IMG/VR virus record: IMGVR_UViG_3300028048_000092 | Location: 1 to 64,000 of that record | Direction: 5' to 3' (one strand) | DNA: 64,000 nucleotides | Source: a virus | Lineage: Duplodnaviria > Caudoviricetes | Shown here: in pieces, positions 391 through 63,894 of the stretch | Numbering within the stretch: position 1 is the stretch's first letter | How the letters are laid out: each line of letters starts with the position of its first letter | Program-made: the position numbers and the translations under genes | The notes under the pieces: generated by a model | What the model was told of the DNA's origin: nothing | Seen by the model: the letters and a program-made list of their open reading frames with translations, nothing else | Databases searched by the model: none

Positions 391-442
391 AGATCGGAGT
401 TACAAACCCTTTACCAAGTGAAGTCATCTCTAACTTCACGTT

Positions 443-692
443 ATTCTACTGTGTGATTACAGGCTAGCACTTCTAGGTTACCTGAAGCAGCATAGGTTTC
501 TTTTTGTTTACAGATCTTAGATAAGTTCCCCCTACAGGACAGAAAAGGAGAATGAAACTCTAAGAGACATCCAATAGAATGGACTTGTCTTTGTTTGTAT
601 TCAGGGGAAGCCACTGTGAAGAGTCTATCTGCAGGATGATGCCCTGCTTGGACTTCGCATTTGTATCTTTAGCCTGTATCACATAGGAGAGT
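443..692 (+). ncRNA. Retron-like msr/msd ncRNA upstream of the RT
   Basis: Imperfect inverted repeat of about 20 bp (449-466 CTGTGTGATTACAGGCTA pairs with 670-686 TAGCCTGTATCACATAG). An unpaired G at 467 follows directly after ...TA, the same layout as the retron branching G. Short hairpin at 470-487 and longer hairpin at 616-659 just before the 3' arm. Confidence 0.7.
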
Positions 693-878
693 GAAATCGG
701 GAGCATTGTCTAGGCCTTACTTGAAAATTCCTTCTAGGGATATAGAGGATAGGCCGCGATGTCTCCAGTCAAGCAGTTGCCGGAGCTGATAGTTGAGTCG
801 TACCGGCTCAGATCTATTCCGGCTTCAAATGATTGTTCATGTATAGTGAACAGCTTAAATGATTCCATAAGGAGTTAA

Positions 879-2700: not shown

Positions 2701-2891
2701 AGTGCAGTTCTCGTACACATTCGGAGCGAGAGTATAACTTTGAACGCATGTGGCAGCATATTACATATCATTCCAGAGAATGTTGCAGGCTCTCCAGGGA
2801 ACAGACAAGAGCCCTCCTGGAAAGACCGGTAAATACAAATGATTTAACAATTTACAGAAATGAGGATTTGAATGAATCAAAAACTGTTTGA
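2670..2891 (+). CDS. Small hypothetical protein between E2 and JAB
   Basis: Fills the gap and overlaps both neighbours; the start may be ATG 2685. Confidence 0.45.
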   Translation: MGRAGMVNYIKCSSRTHSEREYNFERMWQHITYHSRECCRLSREQTRALLERPVNTNDLTIYRNEDLNESKTV

Positions 2892-11974: not shown

Positions 11975-12060
11975 ACGAGGGTAACGGTCTCGGCTTATAC
12001 CCGAGGGATCATAACTGCCGTAACTGGTCCATGTGGGTTCAAATCCCACCCCTCGTACCA
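11975..12060 (+). tRNA. Atypical tRNA-like gene, anticodon UAU (Ile-type), no D-arm, long variable arm
   Basis: Acceptor ACGAGGG/CCCTCGT-A-CCA; T-arm GTGGG-TTCAAAT-CCCAC; anticodon arm CTCGG-CTTATAC-CCGAG; only 7 nt where the D-arm should be. Confidence 0.7.
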
Positions 12061-44281: not shown

Positions 44282-44758
44282 TCAGATTACTGTATAGAAC
44301 ATCAATCCCTGACTGAGCTATGTGAGTTTGTTCTAAGTCTCTTCTTTAGTATAATAGTTGCTTAGAGATATGGAAAATGAGTTTGACAGCTATGCCAGTT
44401 TTTCATCTACCTAAATCTTTGTATAGTAGTCAGAAAACTTTTCTTTGATACTACTTAAAGAGTTAGATATCTCACTTATAATATCGTTTATCTGTTCTAT
44501 AGTATAATAGTCTTGAAAACGACTCTGTAATTCAGACAGAGAGTTTGAGATATCTGCCAGAAACTGATCTATTTCATTTTTTGTATAATAGTTGCTGAGA
44601 TCTGTCTGGGGAGGGATCTCTACTACGTTACCGTTGGGCAGCTTTGCTTTCTGCTTTATTGCGCCGTTCTCTATTGTTTTATAAACAAGAACTGTTCCCT
44701 GCAATATATTCGAGTTAGCAAAAGAGCTGTCGGATTCTATTTTCTATACTCTGGCCAT
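44282..44758 (-). CDS. TAG-recoded virion-type protein with YYTKxE repeats (158 aa, 5 in-frame TAG)
   Basis: RBS TAAGGA, MARV*KIESDSS...AKLPNG...; four YYTK/YYTI repeats continue through the TAGs to TGA. The N-terminus resembles that of 59107. Confidence 0.8.
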
Positions 44759-44946
44759 TTTTAAGTCCTTATCTAGTTCATATAAGGGTACTTGGTAAAG
44801 TGTATAAAGACCTTGTAAAAGAGCTAAAAAACAGGCCCTTTTTTGGCATAATAAGTTGAAGGAGATTACAAGGTTGTAATCTTAAAAATTTAATCCTTCC
44901 TGGACAACTGTCCAGTTTCTTTAATGCCATAATAAAGGAAGTTAAA

Positions 44947-45318
44947 ATGGCACTTTAGAAAATCAGTTCGGTGAGAGCAGCCGCTCTCCTCGTCGCCACT
45001 GCAACCAATGTCTCCGATTTCAAGGACTCGAAAGAGTACCTGTTACAGGAGATATAGAGAGCGATGGTAAAAGGAGATTCTCAACTGGGAGTATATGAGT
45101 AGGCTGTAAAAGGCCTGCTCTTGTAGTACCCGGGAGAGGATAAGGAAGCTCTCACTGAACAAGTGATAAACCGTCTGTAGAAGGACTTACCGAAGTTCTA
45201 TCAGAAGTCCTTGAAAGTCTATAGATGGCTCAAATGGGGGCTGCTCCCCGGAATGGCTTTAGCCTTTGGCTGCGGGATCCTGTGTGGATTCTGCTGCAAA
45301 GGGTTGGGGCTGTTCTGA
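44947..45318 (+). CDS. TAG-recoded protein with C-terminal TM helix (123 aa, 5 TAG)
   Basis: RBS AAGGA, MAL*KISSVR...QEI*RAM...RL*KDLP...WGLLPGMALAFGCGILCGF; ends in TGA. Confidence 0.65.
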
Positions 45319-45517
45319 ACGCAGTTATACATATTAGAGCTGGATTTCGCTTGCCCCGGGGAATTGGCCCCCGAATGCCGCGAACCAGCTTTATTTGTTT
45401 ACCGTCTCAGTGTCTCTAGGCCAAAAGAGACGTCGTCCTGAGCAAGACGTTAAAAGGCTCCGCGCTTTTTCCTTAAGAGGGCCTCTTCTATTTTGTTTTT
45501 CTTTTTATTTCCTTATT

Positions 45518-46290
45518 GTTTTGTAGAAGAGACTCTCCTAAGGCGAAAGCTAAAGGCTTCAGTTCACCAGAGCCTGCAATAATAATCTGGCGAACCGGTC
45601 CTGCCGAGGCGAGCGAAAGCAGTTTCGGCTTTATAAGGACAGACCGATGCATCCGGTCAGGAATACAAAAGATGCCCTAGTGCTGCAGGTCAAGCACCCC
45701 AGACAGAAAGGGTTAAAATCGCAGTTGCTCTGGAAGCCTGATAAGCTTTCCCGTGGATACTTCCATTCGCGGACTGGAAGGAGGGACAGAAGAAAGGAAT
45801 GTCAATTCTCTCTGAAGTCCAACCCGAAGAGCCGCCTTAAGTGGCATGAGCTGTATCACGCAGCACAAATGTGACGGGACTTCCGGCAGATCCGGAAGGA
45901 GCTGAGAGGCGTTGTCCGGTGATGCGGACATCTGGCCAGCCCAATGGGGCGACACATGGAAGATTCGTATTCCATGTTGCGGAGGAACTGACGAGGCAGT
46001 GGTTCCTTCTGCAGTCCGAAAGGTTGAGATACCTGTAGGATGTTTGATGTACAGTCTCAGTACATCAACGACAGCAAAGCAAAGGAGATACAGAGGAGCT
46101 ACACTTCTCTGATGTTGAAAGAAGTTTCGGGAAACATTCTATGAGTACAGGCTTTGACAAGCCAAAAGGCTCCGGATGCCAACTGAAATGTATTTTGACG
46201 AATAGCAGCAAGGTTCTATCAAGAGCTAAGCTGTGATGTAGATCAGGGAGCTGCCATATTGGGAAGGAGGTATGGCAGATCCTTTCTTAT
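45518..46290 (+). ncRNA. Candidate large structured ncRNA (about 770 nt)
   Basis: No convincing ORF under either code; dense hairpins including GCGAAAGC GNRA loops; lies directly 5' of the tmRNA-like gene. Confidence 0.5.
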
Positions 46291-46372
46291 GGGGCTGAGA
46301 AAAGTTTCGACAGCATGGAAAGCCAAAGTGCACCTGTCTGGACCCCCGGGGCAGTACCGGGCAGCTCCACCA
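46291..46372 (+). ncRNA. Mini-tmRNA (tRNA-like domain only, 82 nt)
   Basis: GGGGCTG/CAGCTCC-A-CCA acceptor with G3.U70, stemless D-loop ending TTCGAC, P2 GACAG/CTGTC closing about 20 nt, T-arm CCCGG-GGCAGTA-CCGGG. No tag-reading frame. Confidence 0.8.
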
Positions 46373-46395
46373 ATTAAAACACTAAGGAGGAAGAA

Positions 46396-46641
46396 ATGGA
46401 ACTTAGAATCAGTAAACACGATCTGGGTGGAACTCATATAACTTTGACTAAAGCTAGTATAGGTTGTATTGAGAGAAAAACTCTTAATAGAGTTTTAAAG
46501 AGGTTCGGCAAGCACTTACAAGTAGAGGAAGAGCTGTGTGATAGTGTTACATATGCTATACGCGGCTGTGTCCCTACAGTTAACTGGCTTTTTGAAGTTA
46601 CATGTAAGTTCCCTCATATCAAAGTTGTAAGAGAGCAATAA
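46396..46641 (+). CDS. Hypothetical protein
   Basis: AAGGAGG RBS; terminator at 46643-46680. Confidence 0.65.
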   Translation: MELRISKHDLGGTHITLTKASIGCIERKTLNRVLKRFGKHLQVEEELCDSVTYAIRGCVPTVNWLFEVTCKFPHIKVVREQ

Positions 46642-46855
46642 TAAAGGCCTCCCAACTAAGGGAGGCCTTATCTCTTTTTTACATAGCAGCCATTCCAAGC
46701 ACCTTCTAAAAAGTTCCTTTATTATTGGCATAATAAGATGGTGCTGAGGTAAAGGTGCCATAGGAGAAATCCGAGAGCCGGGTCCGATCCCCGGAGCACA
46801 CTTAAGCTCCCTTATGGGAGCGCCCTATTTCTTTTTTACACTGTAGGTAGATTAT

Positions 46856-47302
46856 TCAGCGCCCGGGAGTGTCATATTCAAGTTCCCATCCAAGGGACTA
46901 TATCTTATCTTTTTTAGCTGGGTACCATAGGCTGTTCTGGTCATTTTTAATGTAGACAACACCCGGAGCTATATTTGCAGGAGGAGTTCTGAGTCCCCAT
47001 GCACCTGCGTTTCTATCATAGAGCCCTCTTTCAGGATTTAATATAGCCACCTGTTGCTTTCCCCTGAGATGTGGATCTACTTGCTTTCCCCTGAGATGCG
47101 GATCTACACTGGCAGCAGGGGATTTATATCCTGCTTTTCTTGTATTTTTCCGGCTTGCTTTCTGCTGTGCTTCCCATTTTGCAGCGCCGTTGACTGCTTG
47201 TCCCCAGGGCTACCAGATTCTAGTAGTTCCCTTTTCAACCGGAGCGTTCCCAGCTGAATATGTTGCAGCTATCTTCCTGAGTGTCTCTTTGTAAGTATGC
47301 AT
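46856..47302 (-). CDS. TAG-recoded basic hypothetical protein (148 aa, 2 TAG) with a 27-bp tandem repeat (VDPHLRGKQ x2)
   Basis: RBS GAAAGG, MHTYKETLRKIAA...; open to TGA when TAG is read through. Confidence 0.65.
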
Positions 47303-47327
47303 AATAACCTTTCGCGTTACACTTCAA

Positions 47328-47340
47328 GGGGGGGGGGGGG
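47328..47340. repeat. G13 homopolymer, intergenic
   Basis: Seen directly in the sequence. Confidence 0.9.
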
Positions 47341-47352
47341 CACGTAAAAGGC

Positions 47353-48570
47353 TTATTTTAGAGGCTTGAAAGAAGGTACCTTTTTAATAGTGCGGATCAC
47401 CTGCTCCCCGTAAATGCCCATTGTACATTCAAACTGCCTGGGAGTGCCTTTGTATTTGGGACACCATAAGTAGTCCTTATGATCGAAGTTGAAGCGCTTG
47501 TCATCCCAGCACCCATTGCACACATTGTAATTTATCACTCTGTAAGGAGTATAAAACTCGCAGGAAGGCAAGGAGAATCCTGAAATAAGAACTACAGGCA
47601 CCCTGCAGCACCATGCCAGCCAGGACATCCCTGATCCAAGTCCTATAAAGAAGTCGGCATCTTTTATAAGGTTTATCCTCTATTGCAAAGGCAAAGCTCC
47701 CGTAGCGTCCTCCACTCCCCAGGGAACATGGTTCCATATAAGTCCATTCCCGTAGTTTCTATCTTTGTTTATGCAGTAGACCTTATATCCCTCTTCTTTA
47801 AGAAATCTTATGACAGAGTCCCATCCACAGGGATTGTTCCAGTGCTTTGTCTGGGAGCTTGCCTGTGTGGATATGACACAGTACTTCTCTTTTATCTTTC
47901 TTTTTGCGGAAAGGTCTACTCTCGGTGGAATATCTTCATCCGATACATCAAGTATATGTGCAGCTGTCTTATGCAGTCCGACTTGTCTGAAGTCAATAGG
48001 CTGCCACTAAGTGTTCCCTCCGAAGAACAGCCCCATGTAGTAAGTAGCATAAGGCTTCAAATCAATGTTCTCTTTAACAGAATAAAAATAAATATCGGGA
48101 TACTGCTTCTACAGAAGCTCCTTTATATGGCCTGGCATAATGCAGTGCAGTCTGCAGTGATGCTTCTGCTGGAATCTCTATACATAAGAGAACCATCCCA
48201 GAGTATCTCCTATGGCGCCGTCGGGGAAGTTTATCACAACGTCCTTCTGAGAAGCATCGTAGGTATGGGTAAAGAGGATCTCTTTCCTGTCAGGGGAAAG
48301 TATCTGCAGCTTATAGTTGATGAAGTACATTTTGCTGCTGAACACTTTTCCACCTGCTTTTACAAGCCCGTTGTAGAAGACCGTCCCGGTGTCCTGATCT
48401 GTAAGGGTGAACCAATGGTCTCCGCTGTCCTTGGGGAAGCTTATTCTAAGTCCCTTGTTGAAGTCATATTTAATGCCCTCTACAGCTTCCATGGTAAACT
48501 GGGAAGGTACCTGCCAGTACACCGGAGGTTTTACAATAGGTGCAGGGGAGAGGGAATCGGAAGTCGACAT
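47353..48570 (-). CDS. Autotransporter O-heptosyltransferase (Aah/TibC family), TAG-recoded (405 aa, 4 TAG)
   Basis: YDFN.G, GAIGDTLGWF, PYATY..GLFF, QPIDFR.VGLH, K.WNNP.GW, WNHVPWG.ED.TG, FFIGL.SG.SWLAW, ISGFS, CNGCWDD, WCP, FECT. Confidence 0.92.
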
Positions 48571-48666
48571 ATAAAGGCTCCTGTTTGATGTTTTGCTCTA
48601 AGTGATGTATACAAGGAATATACGCATTCGCGTATAAGTATAAAGGAGAAAGGGAAAGTAGGGCTT

Positions 48667-51600
48667 ATGGCTGACAGCAGCTTCTGGAATATAGGAAATA
48701 TAGAATATCCTGTAATACAAGGACAAGCGGGAAAGCCCTTCTACCATTAGCAAGGTCCTCTCATACAGTTCGGGTAGTAGCTGGTCGATAACAGCTGCCT
48801 TTGCAAGTACAGATATGCAAGGTACTTTGCTTACTACTGTGCAGTTCCTTCAGACAGCTCTTCCATAGCCTTTTTCAAGAACTTCGAGCAGGTTCCCTGG
48901 GAAGGGGGGCATAATATAAAGTTCCTTGATTATACCCAGGAAACAGCCAAAGGTTACCAATGGGGAATGTTCAAAGGACCTGTATATCTGGGCTGCTATC
49001 CAACGGGTCACTTTACTACAGGGAAGTGGCTTCCGGTGGAGCTTCCCTATGAGAATGTTTCATAGGACCTTAATGTAACTTCTCCTTCTCCTTATTATAT
49101 ATATTAGGAAAATGAGGACTACAACTACTCCTTGAAGTGCATGATAGTAAGTTCCTATTAGTGCTGCAATGGGGAGGAGGGCTGTGGAGTAGAAGTACAG
49201 AGAGGCTAGTACTTTGAAAGCTCTTTCCCATTCTGCTATGCATAGTTCTTTGTAAGTAACCTTGATGCAAGCGATGCTTCTCAGGTAACAGCTGCTCTTA
49301 TAGAAGGCTCCCAGGGATGTGTATGCACTCCTCCTTACAGGATGCTTAAGAAGTTCTAGCAGTACGATTGCTCTACAGCTACTATAAGGGTATTCAAGTA
49401 GATGGTGCTTCTTCCAGAAGAACTCGACAGATGCTCTTAGTTCTGTCCCTCCTGCCAATAGGAGCTTCCTGCTTTAGCTCCCAATGCTGCTTTTTTAGCT
49501 AAGAAGGATTGTGTTTATTGGGTTTTATGGAAGTTCCCCCTTCCATAGGACTGCAGTGATTGTTCCAAGACTTTACATAAGATATAGTGGCAGTTGGTAA
49601 CGGATTATAAAGATATCCCCGGGGAAGTTGTAGGGAAGGGGCCTGGGTGGAAGCCCCTGAGTTTCCATGATCCTGACGAGACCTTTACATACTGTGAATA
49701 GGAAGCTCCTGGAAAAGTCATCTTCCAGTGGCAGTATGTAAGGAATCCTCAGCCTTCCCAGGGAGAGATATAGGGCAGCCGCCCCGCTGTAAAGCCCGAT
49801 GAAAACCCCTGCAAAGAATACTGCAGGAAGAACCCTCTGGCAAGGCCCTCCATATCAGACTCTTTGTCAGGTGCCTCCGACAGTACTTTGTAGAAGCACT
49901 TTCCCTGCAATGAGCCCTAGCCTCCTCCTATGAAGTACAGAGAGTTCCTCCATACTGAGTTTGATGTATATGAGCTGTCACTTCGAGTTACTGTCATTAC
50001 AAGAGATCAGGTGAAGGAGTGCTATCAGAGCTATAAGATAGATACTCCCTTATAGGACTGGCATTGGAATCTTATTTAGAATGCTGTCTATGATTATCAG
50101 CTTACAAGCTACTTATATGGTACTTCCTTTCGGGGGACTGAAGTAAAGAACGGCTTTATCCATAAGTATGTTGTGCAGTTACATGGAGAAGAGCCTCCTG
50201 AAGATCCTTCCGGGGAGTATCAGGGAGACGACTTCGACATAGTAGCTGATGGAAGCTCCTACAACTTTGTCGATAAAAGTCAGAACCTTTGTCAGTATGC
50301 TTATCAAGTTTATTTAGCAGAGAAGTGTAAATGCTTTGGTGATTGTATTTCAGACTCCCGTTCCTGCAGCACATCAAATCAGAGTGAATATATAAGTGGC
50401 TGGGGGTGCTCCAAATGGCAAAGTCTTGGTCAGCATTCTTAGTATTAGATAAGAAAGGAAATGCGGTTCTGCCTGGATAAGTGGAGCCGGAACCCGGAAG
50501 AGTCTGTACACAAGTAGTGGGTTTATACTACTTTGTCTGATGATCCTTATTTCTGTGAATAGTATCCCCAGCCACTTAAAAGGGGGATTATCTACGATAA
50601 CTATGTATTTACACCAAACTGTTCCGATTCTACAAGTATAGTGGTATCTTTCCCTTTTGTTTCTTATCCCTGGTGTGGAAAACAGCCAAAAGCTTATTAG
50701 GGATATAAGGCATAGGACAGCCTATCCAGCTCCACTTTACTTCAAGTAGTGGACAATGTAATAGATCTTACCAATACAGATCCTCCGATATGTACCGTAT
50801 ATGGATTTATTGATCCTCACAAGGTGGCGGTTTGGCCAGGGTTTATTTCAGAGCGGCCTGTGCGACCAGCGCCTTGCTGCGGAGAAGAGGCCTTCTATTC
50901 CGATAGCTGTCATGCTAAGGGCAAAATTTATTAGCCTCCCATTATAAAGTGGCCCAAGTCCTGTTTGTAGCTTCCAGCGTACGGAGTGAGAGTTTATATA
51001 GCTGCTTTTGGACATGCCTGGCCTGGGTTCATTTCCACGTAGAAGACCGTTGATTCCCAGACTAAGTACTATGTAAATGCTTCCAAGTTCCTGCAGTACT
51101 TCAACTGTACCAAGCAGTCTTAGCTGTAGTTCTATTAGGAGCTCCCATCGTAGTACCCTGAAGGATGGGATCCGCCTTTCTCAGGCTTCTATCAGACCGA
51201 TTATCTTCCTGCAAAGGGTAACTGGTGCATGCCTCCCATAGGCTTCTTCAACTAGCTGTCCCCTGTGAACTTCAACCAGGGCTCTATAGCTTAGTGGGCA
51301 GGAGGTTCGGGAAAAGTCCTTTTGTATATATTCTCCGGGCATGCTTCCCGCTGCTAGTCACAGTTAGAGGTCGGCATAAGAGCACTTGCAGGGAAGAACA
51401 TCGGCGGCAGAAAAGCTATAGGCGTCTAGATCCCCCTTAACAAGAAAGGGGCAGGAGATAACGGGACCATAGCATATTCTTATGATTGTGTTGATGTCAA
51501 TCAGTTTATAGATCCCAATAGTGAGTACTATCATAAAGGTGTCTTATAGAGAGCCTATGAGAATCAGGATATAACAGGGTTCGTTGCCAATGGGTTTGTA

Positions 51601-52833
51601 GATGGTATAGATGCTTAGCTCTGCAATCGTATAGGAGGAAGCTTCCCCGGAGGAGCCTGCAGCAATGTGGAAAAGTTCCTGAATGAGTAGGAACTTCGTT
51701 AGCTGTTTGGTTCTGCTGCTGCAGGAAACTGGAACTCTCATTTCTTCACTTATGCTGATTTGAACTATCCGAAGAGTCCTTTCGGAAAAGCTTGCGCAGA
51801 CAGTTATATAGGTGTCTCCGGGAGGACTGGGGGCAAAAACGCATCTTCACATGATGTTGCGCTGCTGATGCGGATGCAAAAACTGCCCAAGGCAGCTTCC
51901 AGGACAGCCTGGTATATCCAGAACTGCTATGTGACCTTTTATGACTAGGATGATGGATCTGAGATCCTTCCCGGCTGGCCCTACAGGGTGTATGATCAAG
52001 CTGTTGACTTTGGCTATTCTTTTTGTGTGGAAGGCTCTCCTTCCCAGATAACTTATCTTATAAATACGACAGAGAGCTTTACACCCTCTGATTAGGATGT
52101 ATTTGCCGCGCTTATTAATGGCTCAAGAACTACATTCCACATATAGATACCTCCTTATCTGGCAGGAGAAGGGCTCTCTCCAACGGATCTTACTAGAAGT
52201 ACTTTTCAGCTTGTATCTGTAAGGGACAGCAGGAAGTGGCTGAGCATTTCTGCTTCCACTTGGGATGGACGTTGCTATTTGGATGCTTACGGCGGGCTGC
52301 AGGTTACTACTGCAGATAACGGAAGCACTACTTGGAATTGTGAAACGCAGACATGTTATTGGGGATAGCAAACTACAGGAGATTGTGTTATTCCCACATT
52401 GGATATACTGCCCCACGGGGATTGCGATACAGAAACAGGTACCGTAGGCAGAAGCGGCTTTGGCAGATACCGCAGCCTGCTTAAAAATGCTTCTGACTCC
52501 GGTTATGCTCTAGTAAATACTTCCAGTATGCGTTTCTGTGATCTTCCTTAGGGGGTTTTTGCTGCGTTTCTTATAAGAGCCTTAGACAATTGGTACGACT
52601 TTCCAAGCAGCTATGCAAGGGTCTGTGATCAGAATTATTATAGAGCATCCAAAGATTGTATAGTCATACCTGTTCCCGCTAATCTTGAGGAGGGCGACTA
52701 GTATACTCTCAGTATAACTCATGATCTTTCAGATAGCACCACTTATGAATAGGAAGGAGATACTAGTTATCGTAAGTGCCATGTATAGATATAGCAGAAG
52801 TTCATTTTCCACTTGCCGACATAGTGGTACTGA
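48667..52833 (+). CDS. Giant Cys-rich hypothetical protein, TAG-recoded (1388 aa, about 50 in-frame TAG)
   Basis: One frame with no TAA or TGA for 4.2 kb; joins the listed fragments 50173, 50749 and 51760; ends in TGA followed by the RBS of the next gene. Confidence 0.85.
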
Positions 52834-52847
52834 TAAAGGAGAAATAA

Positions 52848-53579
52848 ATGCCCTGTTCTTGTAAACTAAAATCTTCAGATGTCAAATATGTTCCACCTAA
52901 GTCCCTTTAGGTTAAGCTCGCAGAAGTAAAATAGGTGCAGCCGGCAAAAGCTGCCTAGCCTTATGACTTCTCAGCTACTACAAAGCCGTCTTAGCTGTGC
53001 CTTAACTGTGTTTCCAAGCATCTGGGACTTGCCTATCTGTTCCTTAGATAGCAGCTCCCATACAAGCTGGTTTCCATAGGATAGCTGATGTGTGCTTCTT
53101 AGCACCTTTACAATATGCAGCTCCCCGAAGCAAATTATATGCACAGTCTTGCTTTGAAGCTCCTCAGAGATCCTGAAAATAAAGAAGTTCAGTCCCGGAT
53201 AGAAAAGGTCCTTCAGGATCTGTATGAAACTTCGCAGCTTCCCGGTATATAGTAGAGAGAAGAGGGGACTCCTTTGTAGGAATACCTTCTGACGTTATTG
53301 TTGGTATACTCTCTCGTATTTACTTAGATCATGTACTAGAAGAGCAACATTCCCTGGGCAGTCTCCCATCTTGCGCAGGCTTCCATATTCTATTTCGAAG
53401 CATCAAGAAACAGAGAACAGTTCCAAAGTACCAGAGAGATCTGGAAGCTTTTACAGGATATAAAAGATTTCAACAAGGAGTATTCTTCTGCCAAGTCCCG
53501 CCTGTGGAATTTTATAGAACAGCTCTACAACGAGTATAAGAAACAGAAGCAGCAAAAGGAGTCAATAATATCTCTCTAA
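52848..53579 (+). CDS. TAG-recoded hypothetical protein (243 aa) with CxxCxxKHL...IG*L..A..H motif
   Basis: AAGGAG RBS; open to TAA with about 12 TAG. Confidence 0.8.
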
Positions 53580-53672
53580 AGGAAATACGTAGTATTTCCA
53601 ATTAGAGATATTATTGGTATATCGAAAAAGTCCCTTATGACGGCTTCTTCTTTATAAACATCAGGAGATCTT

Positions 53673-54446
53673 ATGTTCTACATTAATATAGATACCAGAA
53701 AGTTTACAGTCCCTCCGGGAAGCGACTCCCATCCCCCGTATCCCAAGCCTCCCTGCAACTGTAATAAGGAGCGCCCTACTTTCCTTAATTATGGGAGATG
53801 CAAGCCCCAGAAAGAGATAGAGAAGCCGGAACTGATCTAGTTCCAGATTTCCGAGATCCCTGTAACGTTCCTTCATGAAGACGGAACTCCCTTCGATCTT
53901 ACAGGAGCGGAACTTCTACTGGCAGTAGATAATAACTTCAAGCACAGTGACTCTCTCATAGCACTTGATCCGCAGGGTGTAGTTACAGATGCGCTTGCTG
54001 GCCAGGCCTCTTTTGCTGTAGTCACCGATTCCATGAAGCTTCATCGTTTGGTACAGGCCAAGATCCCTGCTTCCCAGGTAATGATGTAGATCATCATGTA
54101 TCCACAGGGAAGCCCCTGGGGGAAGATGCTGCTGCACGACAACGGCATCAATCTTATTCCAAGAATGTATTCCGATAATGAATCTCCAAGGGAAACTCCT
54201 TAGAACTATTATACCAAGACACAGATGAGATCCATTCTGAAGAACTATCAGAAAGTGGACTCCGACTCTTCCACAGGTATGATAATCAACGGATAGGGGG
54301 TTCCCGGCGATGATATAGGCATGCCTGGAGACTTTTATGTAGATACCCTTTAGAGCAAGCTTTACTTTAAAAAAACTGACGACTGGGTCTTTATAGGCTA
54401 CCTCTCGACGGGGCTGCCTCAAATAGAATATGATGTAATTTAGTGA
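53673..54446 (+). CDS. TAG-recoded baseplate/tail protein (BppU-like N-terminal domain, 257 aa)
   Basis: DGTPFDLTGAEL...DALAG...M*I and G.GVP...G.PGDFYVD...LY.K...W motifs; ends TAG-TGA. Confidence 0.75.
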
Positions 54447-54457
54447 AAGGAACCATT

Positions 54458-55105
54458 ATGGCCGACAAAAACATCCAACTTAAAGACAGAAACGAAAATC
54501 TTCTTTTTCCACGGGTAAAACTTACCAATGCTGTAAATGACATTGGTTTTATTACTTCGGCGGAAGTCAGCAGCAATTATGCTACCAAATCGGAGATCGC
54601 TGACATCATCTCTGCAAAACTCAGCAGAGTCGTTGTCGATGCTCTCCCGACAGAAGACATCCAGACCAACACCATCTACATGGTCCCAAACGGAGGAAGT
54701 AACTCCTCCAACGTTTACACCGAATATCTCTACACTAACAACAAGTGGGAGATCATCGGAAGCACCGATACGGACCTGACCGGTTATGCTACCGAGACTT
54801 ATGTCAGCAATTATGTTGCTTCGCAGGGCTTTGCCACTGAAACTTATGTCAGTGACTATGTTGGCTCTCAGGGCTTTGCTACTCAGTCCTGGGTCACCAG
54901 CCAGAATTATGCAACTGAAAGCTATGTGAGCTCCACCTATGCTCCGATCAGCAATGCTGCTCTCGAAGGCACCCCGACCGCTCCGAATATCACCAGCGAG
55001 TCCTCCGGAACTCAGATCGCAAACAAGAACTATGTTGAAGGCTATGTCAACGACATGTTCCTTGCGCAGAACCTTGTTTACGTCGTTCTCTCCGACTCTC
55101 TGTAA
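54458..55105 (+). CDS. Tail/head fibre-type protein with ATETYV repeats (no TAG)
   Basis: VVDALPT.DI..NTIYMV...YTEY.Y....WE.IG.T..DLTGYA, ATExYV repeats, LEGTPTAP. Confidence 0.8.
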   Translation: MADKNIQLKDRNENLLFPRVKLTNAVNDIGFITSAEVSSNYATKSEIADIISAKLSRVVVDALPTEDIQTNTIYMVPNGGSNSSNVYTEYLYTNNKWEIIGSTDTDLTGYATETYVSNYVASQGFATETYVSDYVGSQGFATQSWVTSQNYATESYVSSTYAPISNAALEGTPTAPNITSESSGTQIANKNYVEGYVNDMFLAQNLVYVVLSDSL

Positions 55106-55127
55106 TAACTGAGCAGGAAACAGCTAG

Positions 55128-56663
55128 ATGTCCAATATTCAGATACACTCTTATACAGGATAGGATCTATATCCCCGTATCAAGACCAGCAATGTTATAA
55201 ATGATGCGGGCTTTTTAGCTGTTTCCGATTCAGGCTCATAGGGAGCTATACTGCTGCTTACTTCATAGGGACCCAGGTGGAGTAAGCCGCAGTTTATATC
55301 CAACTACATAGAAATAACTTCCGTATCCGATTCAAAGATCTTTTTACAGGGAAGCAATATTCCAGTGGGAGTGGAAACTTCCCTTGGCAATTACTATCCT
55401 ATTTAGAAGCGATCCCTTGTCATCGACTCCGATTCCATACAGATAAGTATCGATCCTTATCTTGCTTATGACGGGACAGCTTCTTTTGTTCCTCCCTGGA
55501 AGGTTTGGTTTTCCAGTGCCCCGGTCATTGTGGAGGGAGGAGCTTCCAATACACAGAAAATAATCAAGTTCCCAGGGGGTGCTTCAGGGTGGGCCTTCAA
55601 GCCCCTTCCCAATAGAGTCTATTATTATGATCTTATAGACAGCATTTCCGATTCTCTTGAAATAGACTTTCAGACAGCCGCCTTTTCCGATTCCACTTAG
55701 CAGTTCAACTTTGAAATGCAGATCGTACAAGGCGCTGTATATAATAGTAAAAATCTTATATGGAACACTTAGAAGGAGCTTCTGTGGAAAGCAGGAAGCA
55801 CCTTCTCAAGTTCCAATTCAGCACCTGCTTTGGATTTGAAGGCACTGCACTGTTTTGACTTCAGGTGGGACGGTCAGCGGCTGCTCGGAGAGATGGCATA
55901 CAAGATCTCCGATGTGGGTGCTTAGCAGAAGCCTCTAAGGCTGACAGCACAGGCTGCAAATTCTTCCGTTACACTCAATTGGGTGGACTCTTCAGGAAGT
56001 GTTACTCCTCAGGCAGAGCTTTATTACAGAACAGCAGGAACTTAGTGGACTTCTTATACAATAGGAACTTAGCTGCAGCTTACTTCTACAGGAGACTGGG
56101 TGTAGTTCTGGAACAGCGCAAACAAGTTCTCCTATTCCACTGCAGCCTATTATCAGTTTGCCATGCAGGGTGTTATTGCGGCTTCCGGGAACATCATGTC
56201 CCTGCTGAATTATGGAAGTATGAAAGGGGCTGCTTTTGCATACTTGTTCAATGGTTGTGATTCTCTTACAACTGCTCCTGAGCTTCCTGCCACTGTCCTA
56301 GCGAGCAGCTGCTACTTTGCGATGTTTCGTACCTGCACGTCTCTTATTGTTGCACCTGTGTTGCCGGCATCTGTCTTATATAATAACTGTTATCAGTCAA
56401 TGTTCCGCGGATGTACTTCTTTGACCGCTGTTCCATTGCTGTTTGCCAAGGCTCTTGTAAAAGGATGCTGTGCTTATATGTGCTATAGCTGTACTTCTCT
56501 AAATGCTGTAACAGTTGCGTTTGACACCTGGGAAGACAATACCACTACCAGCTGGTTGTCCACTGTGGCCGCTTCAGGTACCTTCACTTGTCCTTATGGG
56601 CTGTCCGATGAAGTGAGAGATACGAGCCATATTCCTTCCGGATGGACCGTTGTAAGAGTTTGA
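55128..56663 (+). CDS. TAG-recoded tail-associated protein with C-terminal BspA-type leucine-rich repeats (511 aa)
   Basis: N-terminus paralogous to 56736; LTTAPELPAT.LA..CY..MF..CTSL repeats. Confidence 0.82.
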
Positions 56664-56849
56664 CAATATGAGCAATATGTATATACTATCCCAGAAAGAT
56701 ATTCTTCGGGCATTCATTGAATAAGAGAGGCATAGATGTCTAATAACATACAACTACAGTCTATTTTCGGGAAGCCTTTGTATCCCCGTATCAAGACCAG
56801 CAATGTTATAAATGATGCGGGCTTTTTAGCTGTTTCCGATTCAGGCTCA
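55170..56849 (+). repeat. Identical 69-bp direct repeat (55170-55238 and 56781-56849) in paralogous tail-gene N-termini
   Basis: TATCCCCGTATCAAGACC...GATTCAGGCTCA in both; followed by TAG in one copy and GAA in the other. Confidence 0.9.
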
Positions 56850-58649
56850 GAAGGGCAGTTCCTGATACAGACTGCGGAAGGACCCAAGTGGGTAACTATA
56901 TAGCAGTCGCAGCTGTAGTCCAATTACAGATACTTCTCTCAAGCCCCTCAAAACCTTGTTACTTTTCAAGGGCTGAGCATTCCGGTTGGGGTAGAGGCAC
57001 CTTCCGGCAATTATTATCCTGTTGAAAAGAACTCTTTATCTATAGGTTCCAGCAGTGTCACCCTTGACATCACTGCCTATCTTGCTTATTAGGACACGCC
57101 TTCTATCAGCGGGCTTTGGAGAGCGTGGTTCTCCTCGGGAGGCACGCTTTCCGACAGCTTCTCTTTGAGTGACTATTATACCAAGTCTCAAGTGGATGAG
57201 CTTATTGCAGGGAACATTACGGAACGTACAGCTTTTGTGCCCTTTTCCAGTGTTACCAACAATAAAGTGACCTTTACAGGCTGCGGCATTCCTACCGGGG
57301 TGCTTACTCCTTCAGGCAGCTATTACAGCATATAGAAGAGCAGTGTGGAATATAATAAGCAGCTTGGCAGGACTGTATTGGATGTTTCTGCTTATTTAGC
57401 TTATTAGGACATGGCTTCTTTTTCAGGTACCTGGACAGCATGCTTCCCTACAGGTATAATAGGAAGCAACAGCAGCGGGTACTATACCAAGCAAGAGGTG
57501 GATGACCTCTTTGCACAGCTCTCAGACAGTATCCAGAATACTTATTACACTAAGAGTGAAGTAAACGGCTTTATCGATGCACTGTCGGACTCTATAGACG
57601 CAGTGAATACCAAGTTCTCCAGCTATTACACCAAGAGCGAGATGGATGAGAAGCTGCAGCGTAATAATATGCCCATCGGGACTATATTCTACTATCCTTC
57701 TTCAGTTCCACCAGAAGGAGCGTTTTTGTTGAATGGGCAGGTAATTTATAATTGCAATACACTATATCCCGATTTTTGGGAGTGGCTTGTTACAAATATT
57801 TCTGCAAGTAATATAAGGTCGTTGTCAGCTTCTTCTTATTAGGCATAGTTATCATCTAGAGGATTTTGTGGGGCGTTTACTGTTAACAGCAGTACAGGCG
57901 CTGTCAGACTGCCTTGTCTTACAAATGCTTTTATACAAGGAAATGATAGTAATATTGGAGCTTCTATCGCTCCAGGCCTGCCGGATATTCAAGGTGAACT
58001 GCAGGCCACTTATTCAGTTTTCCGTGGAAGTGCTTCAGGTGCGCTTACCTACGCAAGTACCTAGACGCAGCTGTCGTCTCCGACTTTCCCGCAGACAGCT
58101 GTTACACAACGAGTAAAGTTTAAAGCAAGAAATTATAATACTATCTACGGCAATTCAACTACAGTACAGCCCCCTGCCGTAAAGTACTCTGTCTGTATCC
58201 AGGTATTCAATACTGCCCTGTCTCTCTCCAATCAAGTTTCTGCGCAGCTTGCTACAGAGTTGCAAAGCAAGGCCGGGATAAACGCAGAGAATTTCACTGC
58301 GACAGGAAAAGATAGCCTAATCAACATTATGTCTGATTTTGCCCCAACTCAGGTCACATCTGTTGCTGCATTGAATACATATTATACAGCCACCAAAGCT
58401 GGAATTTTGTATGCTTCTTTTACAAATAGTGTAAATGCTACTACAGATTGTTATATTGTAGCTGCAATAACTGAACCCAATGTTACTACATCTTATTATT
58501 ACTCTGGAGGATATGTAGCTGCCAGTCACACTCAAAGACATAGCCTGTTTATACCGAAAGGACAGCGATATAGGGTAGACGCAGGCAATGCAAATATAAC
58601 CTGGTCTGCTTTTTTTATCCCCCTTAGAAACTCCATAGCAACCAGCTGA
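56736..58649 (+). CDS. TAG-recoded tail fibre protein with tail-collar domain (637 aa)
   Basis: YYTK repeats, MPIGTIFYY....PEGAFLLNGQ, VRLP, GLPDI.G, IYGNSTTVQPPAV. Confidence 0.85.
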
Positions 58650-58657
58650 GGTGACTC

Positions 58658-59104
58658 ATGATTTACATCACATATGACATCGAAACAGGTGCTGTAGATG
58701 ATACAGCCTATGCCACTATAGATATAATCCCAGAGGGCAAAGCTTATCTGCCTCTTATGGAAGAGACCTGGAACAGCGCCCAGGGAAAGCTTATGAGAGT
58801 AGAGGACGGGCAGTTCATTTGCACAGATCCTCCGCCAACTGTGGCAGACTATGACAAAGCTATGGAAGACCATCTTGCAGCAGAAAGAGCAGCAAGGGGC
58901 TACACCATAAGAGAGCCTTCAGATTACAAAGACAGTTCCGTAGAGAGATGGAATCAGGATGCAATTGACTGGATCTCCCACAGAGACGCTGTAATGCTTT
59001 ACGGACTTGAAGTAATGAATCATTATGCAGAGACAGGAGAAGCCCCTTCCCTGCAATAGTTCAAATAGAACCTTCCCGTTATAACTTGGTCATATGAGGT
59101 ATAA
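58658..59104 (+). CDS. TAG-recoded tail fibre assembly/chaperone-like protein (148 aa)
   Basis: HL...R..RGY...Y..S....W..DA..W...RD.V...PSLQ*FK*NLP.I.W; follows the tail fibre gene. Confidence 0.75.
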
Positions 59105-59106
59105 GA

Positions 59107-60585
59107 ATGGAATATATCTTCACAGATTTACCTAGATATGTAAAGGTCACTGACAGAAGCCGTTTCAGCAATGCAGTGATCCACGATGGGTATGTACTTT
59201 TGTTCTCTTAGGATGGACAGTCACTTACTGCAAAGCTTCCCAACGGTAGTTTCGTAAATGTGGGAGGAAGCGACTCCTTCTCATTCTCTCAGGTGACTGC
59301 AACTGCTTCGGATGTGCTCGCAGGAAAGTTCTTCCACAACTCCTCCGGTATCCTTGTAGAAGGTACTATACAGACAGTCACAGCAGCTGTGAACGCCAAT
59401 AAGATCGTTATTCCCAGAGGCTTTATAGAATCCGATTCCATTACGATCCCTTAGGCTGATCCTCTTACAGTCTCCGGCAATACCGTTACAGTGCCTGTCG
59501 GTTATATAGCTTCCCAGAGAGTCGCCCAGATAGCTTAGGGAGGACCTGTTACTGTATCAGATAACCTGGTGCACATTCCGGCAGGCTGGAGAGCCGCATC
59601 AGACTCCGTTACAGTTGGTACACTGCAGGAGTCTTAGAGTTACACTCCGGGGACTTCTGATCAAGTTATTCCGGCAGGCACTTATTTGGCAGGTGCACAG
59701 GTGATCCTGGGAGATGCGAATCTTATTTCTGGAAACATTGCTTCTGGGGTTACTATTTTCGGTGTACAGGGAACACATCAGGGAGGCACTTCTCTAAGGG
59801 CTGGTGTGCTGGTCTCTGACAGCGGCACACTTAAAGTGCAACCTCTTAGCTTTGACGGCACAATCCCCAGTGACAGTGGAACTTTGGAGAGCCTTTCTGA
59901 TTCATCTCTATTGATCTTTGAGACAGGACATCCTGAGCCTGCTTATGACGGATAGGGAAGCACATCTGGAGATAACCCATTTTAGCTGGTAGATTATATA
60001 CAGTCAACCGGAACCCAGTACATAGATACAGGCTATTATCCTAAAGCTAATTCAAAGTTTGAATTGCTTGCAAATGTTGACTCTGATAATACAAGTTATG
60101 TATGTCCTTTTGGAACTAGAGAAGGAACTGCTGGATATGCCAAAGAAAAACCCGCTTTGATATTTTTAAAATTTGATAGTGTTAATAAGTTAAATGCTGC
60201 ATGGGGCAGTGATGATTATCAACTTTATTCCACAGAAAAATTCTTTAATACCAAGTGCGCGTATTCTTTATCTTCCGGATATGTATCCTTAAAAACAGAA
60301 AATTTAAGTAACTGTATTGCTTATTCATTTACTGGAGGTTCAGTTACTGACAGTAGACCTATGTATTTGTTTGTTTTATTGAATGGCAGTTCTCCTGATA
60401 TCGATTGGACTATCTGTAGTATGAAATTATATAGGTTTAGAATCTCTGAAGGGGATGCTTTAGTGCATTAGTTTATTCCATGGACGGATTCTCAAAATAT
60501 AGTATGTCTGAAAGATACAGTCACCGGGGACTTGAAGTATAATATCGGTTCCGGCTCTTTTACTAGAGGCCGTGATAGTAATTAA
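59107..60585 (+). CDS. TAG-recoded tail fibre/receptor-binding protein (492 aa)
   Basis: TATASDVLAGK, IP.G repeats, GDANL..GNI.SGVTIFGV.GT, YIQSTGTQYIDTG, KLYRFRI...LVH*FIP. Confidence 0.82.
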
Positions 60586-60600
60586 TAAGGACCCTTTTAC

Positions 60601-61512
60601 ATGAACATAACAGATTCTAATTTAGTTCCCGTTACAGCGCAGCCTAAGGCTGGGCAGCGTGTTATATAGATAGCTCCTGGAAAATGGATCCCTGTGGGCC
60701 TTGGAGGAAAGTTCCCTCCCGTTGCTGCTTCTTCCGACAGCACACTTTTGGCACTCGAAGCAGGGTACATCGATGAGAATGGCAACTTCCAGCCGCTCTC
60801 CTTTAATGGTACTTAGGCAAGCGACTCCGGGAATGCTGTAGAGGGACTATAGCACAAGATCTTCAATACAGGACATGAAGAGCCTGATTATGGTGGCTCT
60901 GGTGGTTCTGGTATTCAATTGCCTAGCGATGCTTGTTTCTATCTGCCTCTTTCTACTGATGTGACAACACAAACCGGACAAGCAACAACAGCGACTGGTA
61001 TAACTTTTAACACTTAGGCAGGTATTACTGCTGCTGTGTTTGATGGCGAAGGGTATATAAGCTTCTCTGACTCAGGCTTACCTGAAGATACTTCAGCTAG
61101 ATCCTTTTCGTTTTGGTTCAAAAGAACCTCTTCTATTGACGATAATGTTGTTATTAATTACGGTGTGGATGCTATTAGAAAGCGCTTTGGTATTTTTTTA
61201 GCCGATACAGGACTCACCGTAGGTATAGGTGGTGGTTACAGTGTAAGTATTACACATGCTTTTGCTGCTAATAGGTGGTACAACATAGTTGTAATATATG
61301 CTGATGGTTTTATTAATTTGTGTGTTGATGGTGGATAGATTCGCAGTGTGGAGGCGCCTTATTTTTCCACGGAACTGACAGGAACAGGTTACATAGGTTA
61401 TCGCAATGGAACCACGTTAAACGGAATGCTGGCAGGTGTCAGAGTATTTAATCGGGCACTTACGGCTGCAGATATATACGCTTTAGCTCGTGAATTTGTT
61501 CCCACCGCTTGA
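60601..61512 (+). CDS. TAG-recoded LamG/concanavalin-like virion protein (303 aa)
   Basis: FDG, SFSFWFK, WYNIVVIY, VDG, RVFNRALT. Confidence 0.82.
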
Positions 61513-61527
61513 TAAAGGATCCTTCAT

Positions 61528-61878
61528 ATGAACTTAACAGAATCTAATTTAATTACTTTAAATACAGAGCTTAAACAAGGTCAGCGCTGTATCCGCATAG
61601 GTAACAGCATAATTCCTGTTGGAGTAGGTGGAAGCTTTGCTCCGGGCAGTGACTCCACTATTCCATAGGCAGCCGATGTCATCCTCGGTGTAGTGGATGC
61701 CCAGGGAAAGTTCCAGCCCTTCAAGTTTAATGGTACAGAAGCCTCCGATTCAGGATAGCCTATTACAGTCTCTTAGTACAAGAGCTGGAACAGCACTTTG
61801 CCTGCGCCCACACCAAGCCCTTCCGGCGGCATGGACGATCTTTAGTTCTTTGATTGGTATACAATTTTATCTAAATAA
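61528..61878 (+). CDS. TAG-recoded protein paralogous to the N-terminus of 60601 (116 aa)
   Basis: MN.T.SNL...GQR.I...IPVG.GG.F...FQP..FNGT.ASDSG. Confidence 0.78.
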
Positions 61879-61890
61879 GGAGTTTTGAAA

Positions 61891-62187
61891 ATGGATGTTA
61901 AAAGATTTGATGTTGTAACGAACGCGAGTGACTCCGCTTCTATCTGCACTGTTCCTTCCGGGAAAGCTTACACAGTGACAGGATTTACTATTGTGGAAAC
62001 TGAAGGCAACTCAGGGGAAATTACACTGAAAGTAGGAAACCAGATCATCGGGCAGTTCGGAGTGTCCGGACCAGATACTATTTATCCTGTCACCAATGTT
62101 AATTTGACTGCTTCTTAGACACTTAAAGTAGATTGCTCTATATCTGGTGTTTATGTCACCGCTTCTGTTGTGGAAAGGGATGTGTAA
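61891..62187 (+). CDS. TAG-recoded small beta-sandwich virion protein (98 aa)
   Basis: TVPSGK.Y...NLTAS*TLKV; TAA overlaps the next ATG. Confidence 0.75.
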
Positions 62188-62474
62188 TGAGCGGGACACT
62201 GGGAGCGATTCGCCGGGAACGGCAAAGAAGGGAAGAAGTTCTCCGCAAGGCTCAGGCGGAAGCCGATAAGCGGCAGTCTCTTGAGCTGAACCGCGAGGCT
62301 GTCATTGCGGAGATTTGCGAGGCTTTCGGCTGGACGGAACTGGATGAGTTCGCCCGGAAGATGATCGATGACGCTTTCGCCGGGCAGCTGGTAGACGTGA
62401 AGCAACTAAAAAAAGACCTTGCCAAGTGGAAAGAAGAACAGGAGCATCCGCAGGAGTCTCCGAAGGAGGAATAA
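62187..62474 (+). CDS. Charged helical hypothetical protein (no TAG)
   Basis: TAATG coupling; higher GC. Confidence 0.65.
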   Translation: MSGTLGAIRRERQRREEVLRKAQAEADKRQSLELNREAVIAEICEAFGWTELDEFARKMIDDAFAGQLVDVKQLKKDLAKWKEEQEHPQESPKEE

Positions 62475-62475
62475 C

Positions 62476-63894
62476 ATGCCACTGTATCATCACCAGGTTA
62501 GCACTTCTGATGTATATGTACCAACAGGGAAAACCATGCCTACAGGGGCAGTGTTCTATGCGCCGTTATCGTCTGCGTCTGCGACGGCAGCGACCGGGCA
62601 GACGTTAACGGCAAAAGGGACTGCTACATATCAGAATCAACAAGGCATCAACTGCGTTTATTTTAATGGAAGTTCTTCATATATTTACATCCCTGAAGCC
62701 CTTGCCGATACCTTTCCTGGGTTAAGTTCCAAAGATACCTTAGCTTATTGTTGCTGGTTCAACACAAAAAATAAAAATGCCGGCCAGGAGATAATCTCTT
62801 GTACAGAGGGTGGGGGGTTTAGTATTGGATTAAATTCGGACGGCAATTCGGGTTATATGCATATTTATGTGATGGCAGGTGGTTCATATTTAAATGAGAA
62901 TATTTGTCCCATTTCCAAGGTAAAACAGGATCAGTGGATGTTTATATGCGTTAATTATAACGGAAGCACTGTTGATGTATATTTAGATAACGAGAAGGTA
63001 AATTCTTTTAATAAAACTGGGAATCTTGGCATGCCGAACAACGCTCCTTTGGCGATAGGAGCAGAAAGCGCGGATCTATCTACGACGTTTTCTTCTGATT
63101 GTTTCAATGGTTATATATCTTCCGTGCGCGTCTACGACCGTGCCTTAACCCAATCGGAAATTACCACTCTATCGCAAGAGTTTGCCCTTGCCGTGGAGAC
63201 TTCCGGCTTCGATGAGCTCGGCCATCCGGTGCAATATGATTCTGCCTTTGATGCTGGGTGTTCACTTTCTTACAGCTGGGTAGACGAGAATACAATATTA
63301 TATATTCCTATGTATGGTAATTCTCCTTTTACCGATAAAAGTCAGAATCAATATTCAGTAACGAACAATGGTGTAACTGCTGTGACTAATGTCGCACCTC
63401 CTTCAGGAGGAACAGGGGCTGGATACTTAAATTCAACAAACCACTATCTATATACAGGAATTAATATCCTCAACGGTCTGACTACTTTTACGCTTGAGTT
63501 TGATTTCAGGCTGACACAAATCCCCAGCGGGGGAAATGACTGGGACGACGGCTATTACTTCGCTGCCAACGGGAATAATTACGACAATCCAGGATGCGAC
63601 ATGTATTTTGGAACCTCTCAGATTGTTCTTAATTTTGACAACTATAATAATCGGGTTGGAACTTCTTATACACCCGATACGAATTGGCACAACCTTAAGA
63701 TAACACGAGATTCATCTAATCTGGTATCCGTTTACATAGACGGCGTATTAATAAACAGCTATACCCGTTCCAATAGTTTTTACTCTGGTTCGTATGGCTT
63801 CGCGATCGGCAGAGTAGAGCCGCAGGGAGAAACCGGAGGTGCTGGTTTCCATGGGTATATAGCAAACTACCGAATTTCTAATATTGTGAGGTAA
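62476..63894 (+). CDS. Double LamG/concanavalin-like domain protein (no TAG)
   Basis: Two LamG domains (FNGSSSY...WMFI..NYNG..VDVYLD...RVYDRALT; FTLEF...WHNL.ITR....SVYIDG...GYI.NYRISN); AAGGAGG RBS. Confidence 0.88.
   Translation: MPLYHHQVSTSDVYVPTGKTMPTGAVFYAPLSSASATAATGQTLTAKGTATYQNQQGINCVYFNGSSSYIYIPEALADTFPGLSSKDTLAYCCWFNTKNKNAGQEIISCTEGGGFSIGLNSDGNSGYMHIYVMAGGSYLNENICPISKVKQDQWMFICVNYNGSTVDVYLDNEKVNSFNKTGNLGMPNNAPLAIGAESADLSTTFSSDCFNGYISSVRVYDRALTQSEITTLSQEFALAVETSGFDELGHPVQYDSAFDAGCSLSYSWVDENTILYIPMYGNSPFTDKSQNQYSVTNNGVTAVTNVAPPSGGTGAGYLNSTNHYLYTGINILNGLTTFTLEFDFRLTQIPSGGNDWDDGYYFAANGNNYDNPGCDMYFGTSQIVLNFDNYNNRVGTSYTPDTNWHNLKITRDSSNLVSVYIDGVLINSYTRSNSFYSGSYGFAIGRVEPQGETGGAGFHGYIANYRISNIVR

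Follow-up and report, generated by a model that had tools for sequence, protein, structure and literature searches.

The 64,000-nt stretch of DNA analysed here (the window) is the first 64 kb of the phage record IMGVR_UViG_3300028048_000092 from IMG/VR, a contig of 106,679 bp that is classed there as linear, has an estimated completeness of 57% (CheckV) and shows a G+C content of about 44% all along. The genes of this contig form two blocks that differ in the use of the amber codon, TAG. The first block encodes, among others, a reverse transcriptase, NrdD, NAMPT, a NUDIX/cytidylyltransferase protein, a primase and a patatin-like protein. In the second, which runs from 44.3 kb to the end of the contig, long frames are obtained only when TAG is read through; its products include a TibC-like heptosyltransferase, large tail-type and LamG-domain proteins, glycosyl- and methyltransferases, a ligase-like protein, a GNAT protein, an HD protein and a 3030-aa fused RNA polymerase beta/beta-prime with inteins. 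The question addressed here is what TAG means in this second block. The comparative evidence points to UAG being, very probably, a sense codon for glutamate in the genes between 44 and 107 kb, the first 44 kb being a standard-code region that avoids TAG. The features on which the argument rests, together with their neighbours, are the following, G006 being a complete relative that is described below.

275-868, minus strand: conserved gene of unknown function, 197 aa, seven in-frame TAGs, 46% identity to its G006 homologue
879-44156, plus strand: standard-code block of tightly packed genes, with no in-frame TAG in any and none ending in TAG
47353-48753, minus strand: TibC-like autotransporter heptosyltransferase, five in-frame TAGs, of which two align with Glu in E. 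coli TibC
48667-52833, plus strand: first large recoded structural gene, 1388 aa, 51 TAGs; its homologue in sister lineages stands back to back with a gene for a compact glutamyl-tRNA synthetase (GluRS)
52848-53579, plus strand: recoded gene, 12 TAGs
53673-54446, plus strand: recoded gene, 6 TAGs
55128-58649, plus strand: paralogue pair, 55128-56663 (10 TAGs) and 56736-58649 (8 TAGs), with TAG opposite GAA of the sister copy
58658-59104, plus strand: recoded gene, 2 TAGs
59107-60585, plus strand: recoded gene, 7 TAGs
60601-61512, plus strand: recoded LamG-domain gene, 5 TAGs
61528-61878, plus strand: recoded gene, 4 TAGs
61885-62187, plus strand: recoded gene, 1 TAG
62419-63894, plus strand: LamG-domain gene without TAG inside the recoded block
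63900-65114, plus strand: next gene, also without TAG

A contig-wide count finds about 357 in-frame TAGs among the 17,606 codons between 44.3 kb and the contig end (2.03%) and none among the 10,413 codons of the early block. The initial annotation of the window had described recoding that starts at 44.3 kb, affects late genes, involves roughly 100 in-frame TAGs and leaves no gene ending in TAG. The figure agrees well with the 111 in-frame TAGs that we count in the 11 solid genes at 47353-62187. The starting point stands as well, but the recoded block extends to the contig end at 106.7 kb, and its genes are not only those of the virion, given that RNA polymerase, the ligase-like, GNAT and HD proteins and a glycosyltransferase are among the products. 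Nor is recoding confined to the DNA downstream of 44.3 kb: the gene at 275-868, isolated on the minus strand at the edge of an otherwise TAG-free block, has seven TAGs, and four TAG positions are common to this gene and its G006 homologue. As for gene ends, only TAA and TGA are used. Between 1 and 44.2 kb, the plus-strand stop-to-stop open reading frames that reach 100 aa or more end in TGA (35), TAA (29) or TAG (2), and both of those ending in TAG are alternative frames nested in real genes (2872-3822 and 14020-14949), so that the claim of no TAG-ended gene is true of the real genes of the early block. TAA terminates 49 of the 104 plus-strand genes and therefore does not share the meaning of TAG, as it would under NCBI code 30, where TAA also stands for Glu. 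Reading through TAG fuses fragments into long frames, that at 48667-52833 being an example, and matches to known families span the TAGs: the TibC-like protein matches E. coli TibC (E = 2.5e-128) across four of them, and polymerase segments match the bacterial RNA polymerase beta and beta-prime subunits in the same manner. Because these matches run across the TAGs, we take the recoded frames to be real genes.

The simplest indication of the amino acid involved comes from within the window. All the motifs that the initial annotation had cited in favour of glutamate are present at the positions given there. A 69-bp identical repeat, found at 55170 and 56781, leads in one paralogue to SDSGS(TAG)G, with the TAG at 55239, and in the other to SDSGSEG at 56835-56855; likewise, TS(TAG)GPRW is paired with TAEGPKW, GNYYPI(TAG)K and GSYYSI(TAG)K with GNYYPVEK, and FNGT(TAG)ASDSG with FNGTEASDSG. 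Altogether, the alignments of internal paralogues place TAG opposite E eight times and opposite Q once. In the heptosyltransferase, the TAGs of WFSYV(TAG)RFQ and LPLQ(TAG)RINL are opposite the E of GWFPYAERFQ and LPLQERVNL in TibC, the other two of the four aligned TAGs being opposite A and N. Codon use points the same way: GAA and GAG together make up 8.55% of the early codons vs 4.15% in the recoded part (plus 2.03% TAG), and the glutamine codons are flat (3.36% and 3.77%, respectively). The further suggestion that TAG was derived from GAG fares less clearly; the anticodon CUA is indeed one base away from CUC, but the codon counts indicate that GAA and GAG were displaced by TAG about equally.

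Homologues in other viral genomes allow the same question to be asked at several evolutionary distances. A TAG-free gene at 81053-81796, encoding an RNA polymerase beta fragment, yields a graded series of homologues with 55-89% identity; the contigs that carry three of these (L034, L036 and L037, 80-89% identity) are likewise TAG-recoded. The complete relative G006 (IMGVR_UViG_3300045988_176357; 192,052 bp, with terminal repeats), which is 69% identical to the phage in the query gene, is recoded from about 18 to 128 kb. More distantly related are standard-code phages of about 194 kb, with 41-51% identity in the polymerase. In the distant standard-code relatives, E is found opposite TAG 36 times, D 30 times, K 16 times and Q 5 times; scored against the substitutions seen for each true residue in these alignments, the counts have a log-likelihood of -492 if TAG is E, -513 if it is D and -539 if it is Q. 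In nearer standard-code relatives (seven loci, 56-65% identity), E is found 87 times, D 41 times and Q 26 times, and the log-likelihood is -671 for E and -758 for Q. The close recoded relatives L034, L036 and L037 can be compared codon by codon, after removal of off-frame matches. The TAGs of our phage are opposite TAG (85), GAA (46), GAG (37), CAG (13) and CAA (4) in these relatives, and the TAGs of the relatives are opposite TAG (85), GAA (26), GAG (16), CAG (7) and CAA (4) in our phage. Thus GAA, although two base changes away from TAG, is its commonest partner, which is what a synonymous relationship predicts. In this set, E is opposite TAG in 60% of the non-TAG cells, compared to 70% for true Glu codons, and E has a log-likelihood of -215, well above those of Q (-410) and D (-426). 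The signal for glutamate is stronger still in the G006 alignments (E -1257, D -1555, Q -1688), and in G006 codon use the sums nearly coincide: 5.85% GAA plus GAG among the early codons, and 2.37% GAA plus GAG with 3.60% TAG, that is 5.97%, among the late ones. Pfam scores agree: those of domains in three genes shift by just 1-6 bits when TAG is translated as E, Q or D, which makes this a weak test, and they are highest with E, 1-3 bits above Q. The alignments, then, show TAG to be in frame, conserved and interchangeable with GAA and GAG at the sequence level, and in every test that was run, from alignments to codon use and Pfam scores, Glu comes out ahead of Gln, as the initial annotation had it.

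Could TAG nevertheless encode glutamine, as in the published phage code 15? Public gene calls on some of the relatives (L034, L035 and L037) are translated in this way, CAG and CAA are the second commonest partners of TAG (17 of the 138 non-TAG cells in the close relatives), and CUA suppressors are generally known to be prone to charging by the glutaminyl-tRNA synthetase (GlnRS) in E. coli. We consider this possibility highly improbable. An alignment of TAG with Gln is what defines code 15, and in every alignment set Glu is ahead, by 47 to 431 log-likelihood units across the data sets; with TAG read as Gln, G006 would have 8.6% Gln and 2.4% Glu in its late genes, vs 3.7% and 5.9% in the early ones; and the bodies of the suppressor tRNAs found in the relatives lack the initial U1-A72 pair of tRNA-Gln.

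These suppressor tRNAs come to light when the contig is compared to G006. The two genomes are collinear, positions 1-44 kb of the contig corresponding to 171-192 kb plus 0-8 kb of G006 and positions 44-106.7 kb to 17-77 kb; the end of the contig thus matches G006 at about 77 kb, and G006 runs on for another 95 kb or so. In G006, ARAGORN, with introns allowed, finds a tRNA(CUA) at 90597-90924, beside a tRNA-Met. A 252-nt intron splits this tRNA after U35, and the spliced form adopts a clean cloverleaf. Over its full length, the intron matches RF00028, the group I family of Rfam (31 bits, E = 1.2e-5, below the family cut-off of 50 bits); the 5' exon has U as its last base and the intron has G, as expected. 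A sister contig has the same tRNA(CUA) without the intron. At 45534-45552 of the phage contig there is a 19-nt exact match to the G006 tRNA intron. Closer to the phage, walking along contigs with 85-89% protein identity to it leads to two loci, L105 and L106, that contain an intron homologous to that of G006 (76% identity over 227 nt, E = 1e-41), with the anticodon CUA between the intron-flanking exons. The tRNA has the acceptor stem GGCCCCU/AGGGGCU, discriminator G and encoded CCA, the D stem GUCU/GGAU with U11-A24 and U13.G22, and the 4-nt variable loop AGAG; U11-A24 and U13.G22, along with A46 and the missing residue 47, form what we take to be the GluRS identity set of E. coli tRNA-Glu. 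In a search of viral contigs with the first 14 bases of this tRNA (GGCCCCTTCGTCTA), 80 loci were examined, and all 41 matches inside called tRNAs belong to tRNA-Glu (36 UUC, 5 CUC). The L105/L106 suppressor accordingly has the acceptor and D-stem sequence of a tRNA-Glu. An intron-split tRNA(CUA) can thus be considered shown in the relatives. A TAG-free gene located close to the tRNA in G006, when used as a homology query, recovered G006-like contigs only, and no CUA tRNA was found in the standard-code relatives G002, G003 and G007-G010.

Several findings weigh against a glutamate-specific decoding system in this phage. The tRNA(CUA), a GluRS and a release factor were all sought in the 106,679-bp record and none was found, which extends to the entire record what had been noted for the window with respect to the tRNA and the release factor; ARAGORN, with introns allowed or not, reports no tRNA in this genome. 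In the case of the tRNA we attribute the absence to the contig ending before the region that holds tRNA(CUA) in the relatives. The L105/L106 tRNA itself is irregular, with a T loop CGCACCA and a D loop without GG that depart from the canonical cloverleaf; in L105, a canonical group I 3' splice at a terminal G would leave two extra A, making the anticodon loop 9 nt long; the fold of lowest energy is something other than a cloverleaf, and ARAGORN makes no call. Since L105 and L106 are identical at the tRNA locus, they provide no evidence from covariation. In the close recoded relatives, Q is opposite TAG in 12.3% of cases vs 4.9% opposite GAA and GAG, an excess that could reflect either the easy TAG-CAG transition or some mixed decoding. 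Finally, the tail genes of the window, for which the relatives are just 25-37% identical and the outside signal is accordingly weaker, have TAG (28), D (24), E (8) and Q (6) opposite TAG.

Two other explanations draw on these points. Under mixed decoding, UAG would give Glu in most cases, and Gln or some other amino acid in an appreciable fraction. Apart from the excess of Gln, this would be in line with the difference of CUA from the anticodon of any natural tRNA-Glu, such that charging may be imperfect. We regard mixed decoding as unlikely, considering that TAG occupies conserved Glu positions, two of them in common with E. coli TibC, and, in a beta-prime segment of the polymerase, the residue after RP, which is presumably Glu in the E. 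coli and Thermus enzymes; that large structural genes of sister lineages have up to 6.7% TAG, which would make ambiguity costly; and that some extra Gln is expected anyway because TAG and CAG are a single transition apart. The other explanation is that the code is standard and the TAGs are only apparent, being either a modified G that was sequenced as T or a UAG that is edited to GAG in the mRNA. The lack of a suppressor tRNA in the record itself would be accounted for in this way. Yet TAG positions are common to independent assemblies from different studies (85 cells), TAG exchanges with GAA, GAG and CAG in the manner of a genuine codon, and the relatives encode a tRNA(CUA) that would be pointless with a standard code; we know of no U-to-G editing system, and this explanation strikes us as even less credible than TAG standing for Gln.

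If UAG is indeed read as Glu, a candidate for the enzyme that charges the suppressor is at hand in the sister lineages. G006 has, at 19638-20708 on the minus strand, a TAG-free gene for a 357-aa protein, back to back with the first large recoded gene. PF00749 matches this protein in two stretches (82 and 60 bits), and the gltX_bact profile gives 203 bits, below its cut-off of 290, compared to 109 for GluQRS and 24 for GlnRS; HIGN and LSKR are visible in the sequence at the HIGH and KMSKS positions. The AlphaFold model (predicted local distance difference test, pLDDT, 90.8) superimposes on the GluRS of Thermus and Thermotoga with a template-modelling (TM) score of 0.83. Judging from the profiles and the model, the protein has the catalytic domain and the predicted fold of a GluRS. 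It is about 110 residues shorter than the cellular enzymes, the insertion domain and the anticodon-binding region each accounting for approximately half of the loss. PF19269, the Pfam model of the full-size anticodon-binding domain, does not match it, and the last 37 residues or so alone align with the GluRS C-terminus. The family comprises 13 proteins of 354-385 aa, the 12 others being 40-98% identical to the G006 copy; in 12 of the 13, PF00749 is the only domain (P0152 also lists PF19269), and the cellular GluRS hits, of 427-468 aa, have both domains. The five contigs with a compact GluRS that we read are all TAG-recoded phages, with G+C of 36-49%, and have the gene in the same position; in four of them this gene is free of TAG and in one it has a single TAG, and the late gene beside it has 4.9-6.7% TAG and just 1.1-3.6% GAA plus GAG. 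The compact GluRS, the presence of which is shown in sister lineages, may be the enzyme that charges the CUA tRNA there.

At the corresponding place, our phage has the TibC-like gene instead. No GluRS-like gene was found in its 107 kb or in about 50 kb of additional sequence from the clade, and scans of viral and metagenome contigs for a clade GluRS returned only G006-like copies and cellular GluRS; two further compact enzymes, P0153 and P0147, are located in other lineages, not in this clade. Three contigs of the clade, of 190, 170 and 159 kb, have none of the 13 compact GluRS, which is weak evidence that the gene is absent. With no GluRS-like gene found in the clade, charging by the host enzyme is the default guess.

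These findings can be combined in a scenario in which the standard-code genes would be translated first, by the unmodified machinery of the host; next would come a phage-encoded CUA tRNA that has the body of a tRNA-Glu and contains a self-splicing group I intron, and as soon as this tRNA carries Glu, the TAG-rich genes would be readable. Three parts of this scenario are ones that we infer: the timing, whether it is the host GluRS or an enzyme of the phage that does the charging in the clade, and any effect on release factor 1. A bolder version is that a tRNA-Glu-derived tRNA(CUA), which becomes mature only upon removal of its group I intron, and, in several lineages, a compact GluRS that dispenses with normal anticodon reading and charges this tRNA constitute a natural, self-contained recoding system that switches the cell to TAG = Glu in the middle of infection. 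We entertain this version tentatively, rating its chances a little short of even. If it holds, TAG has replaced GAA and GAG as the main Glu codon of late genes, and this would be the first natural GluRS/tRNA(CUA) pair.

How does this arrangement compare to known cases of recoding? In the code-15 phages of the gut, namely crAss-like, Lak and other phages, TAG stands for Gln (10.1101/2021.08.26.457843; PMC9523058). The resemblance to these is extensive: in-frame TAGs are limited to one part of the genome, which follows a standard-code block, TAG is shunned as a stop, a tRNA(CUA) is phage-encoded (here, in the relatives), and the phages are large, uncultured and probably live in animal guts. What differs is the amino acid, Glu instead of Gln, the suppressor of the relatives, with its tRNA-Glu body and group I intron, and that TAG can become the main Glu codon. 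According to the same survey, where the codes of phage and host differ, only TAG-to-Gln and TGA-to-Trp changes have been seen, the argument being that host GlnRS and the tryptophanyl-tRNA synthetase (TrpRS) tolerate suppressor anticodons (10.1101/2021.08.26.457843). A reassignment to Glu would break this Gln/Trp-only rule and raises the question of how GluRS, normally a reader of the anticodon, accepts CUA. Another parallel is provided by the TGA-recoded 'Jade' phages, which possess a code-change operon of TrpRS, release factor 1 and suppressor tRNA (10.1101/2021.08.26.457843). As in these phages, where the phage synthetase is thought to charge the suppressor, sister lineages of our phage have a standard-code synthetase gene directly beside the recoded late genes; unlike in the Jade phages, the enzyme is a compact GluRS (354-385 aa), it was not found in the clade of this phage, and neither this record nor G006 yielded a release-factor domain.

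Outside the viruses, TAG is read as Glu in the nuclear code of peritrich ciliates (NCBI table 30), in which TAA is reassigned as well, and to our knowledge nowhere else. The phage shares with this code the meaning of TAG, but TAA is still a stop here, the change is virus-borne and affects part of a genome, and there is no evolutionary link between the two. Compared to the bacterial tRNA-Glu (UUC, CUC), the suppressor of the close relatives has the same acceptor stem, D stem and 4-nt variable loop, and is set apart by CUA, the group I intron after U35, the non-canonical T loop and the D loop without GG. A full-text search of the published literature gave no report of TAG = Glu in phages, and a 2026 survey of jumbo phages assumed TAG = Gln.

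The practical consequences concern annotation in the first place, recoded phages being translated by default with TAG = Gln. Because proteins of the relatives are stored in this form, late proteins in the databases probably hold Gln where the phage inserts Glu, a neutral residue instead of a most likely acidic one at some 2-7% of positions. In addition, the compact GluRS and the intron in the suppressor may prove useful in synthetic biology, as a new orthogonal synthetase-tRNA pair and as a novel type of timing switch.

Some further elements of the contig deserve mention. A tRNA-like element at 11975-12057 on the plus strand (Rfam tRNA, 36 bits) has an encoded CCA, a nearly absent D arm, the anticodon UAU and a 24-nt insert in the variable region; we considered it as a reader of UAG, which its anticodon loop, CUUAUAC, excludes. 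A tRNA(UAU) with a long extra arm is also present in another viral locus. In a 1-kb non-coding stretch at 45300-46400, an element at 46291-46372 (plus strand) has tmRNA-like ends, GGGGCUG...UUCGAC at the 5' side and CAGCUCCACCA at the 3' side, with G3.U70, and gives a weak alpha-tmRNA match (20 bits). As a decoding factor it was rejected, having no CUA and no link to decoding that we could find, and no homologue of this candidate mini-tmRNA was detected in the other loci examined.

The fused beta and beta-prime subunits of the RNA polymerase occupy a single 3030-aa frame at 87687-96779 (L002:7687-16776), which is broken by intein and LAGLIDADG endonuclease domains, and further polymerase fragments are separate genes, one at 81053-81796 and another from 105730 to the contig end. 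The TibC-like product of 47353-48753 is about 55% identical to E. coli TibC, and its gene adjoins those of Ser/Asp-rich tail proteins; this juxtaposition suggests that the phage may use the enzyme to glycosylate its own tail fibres.

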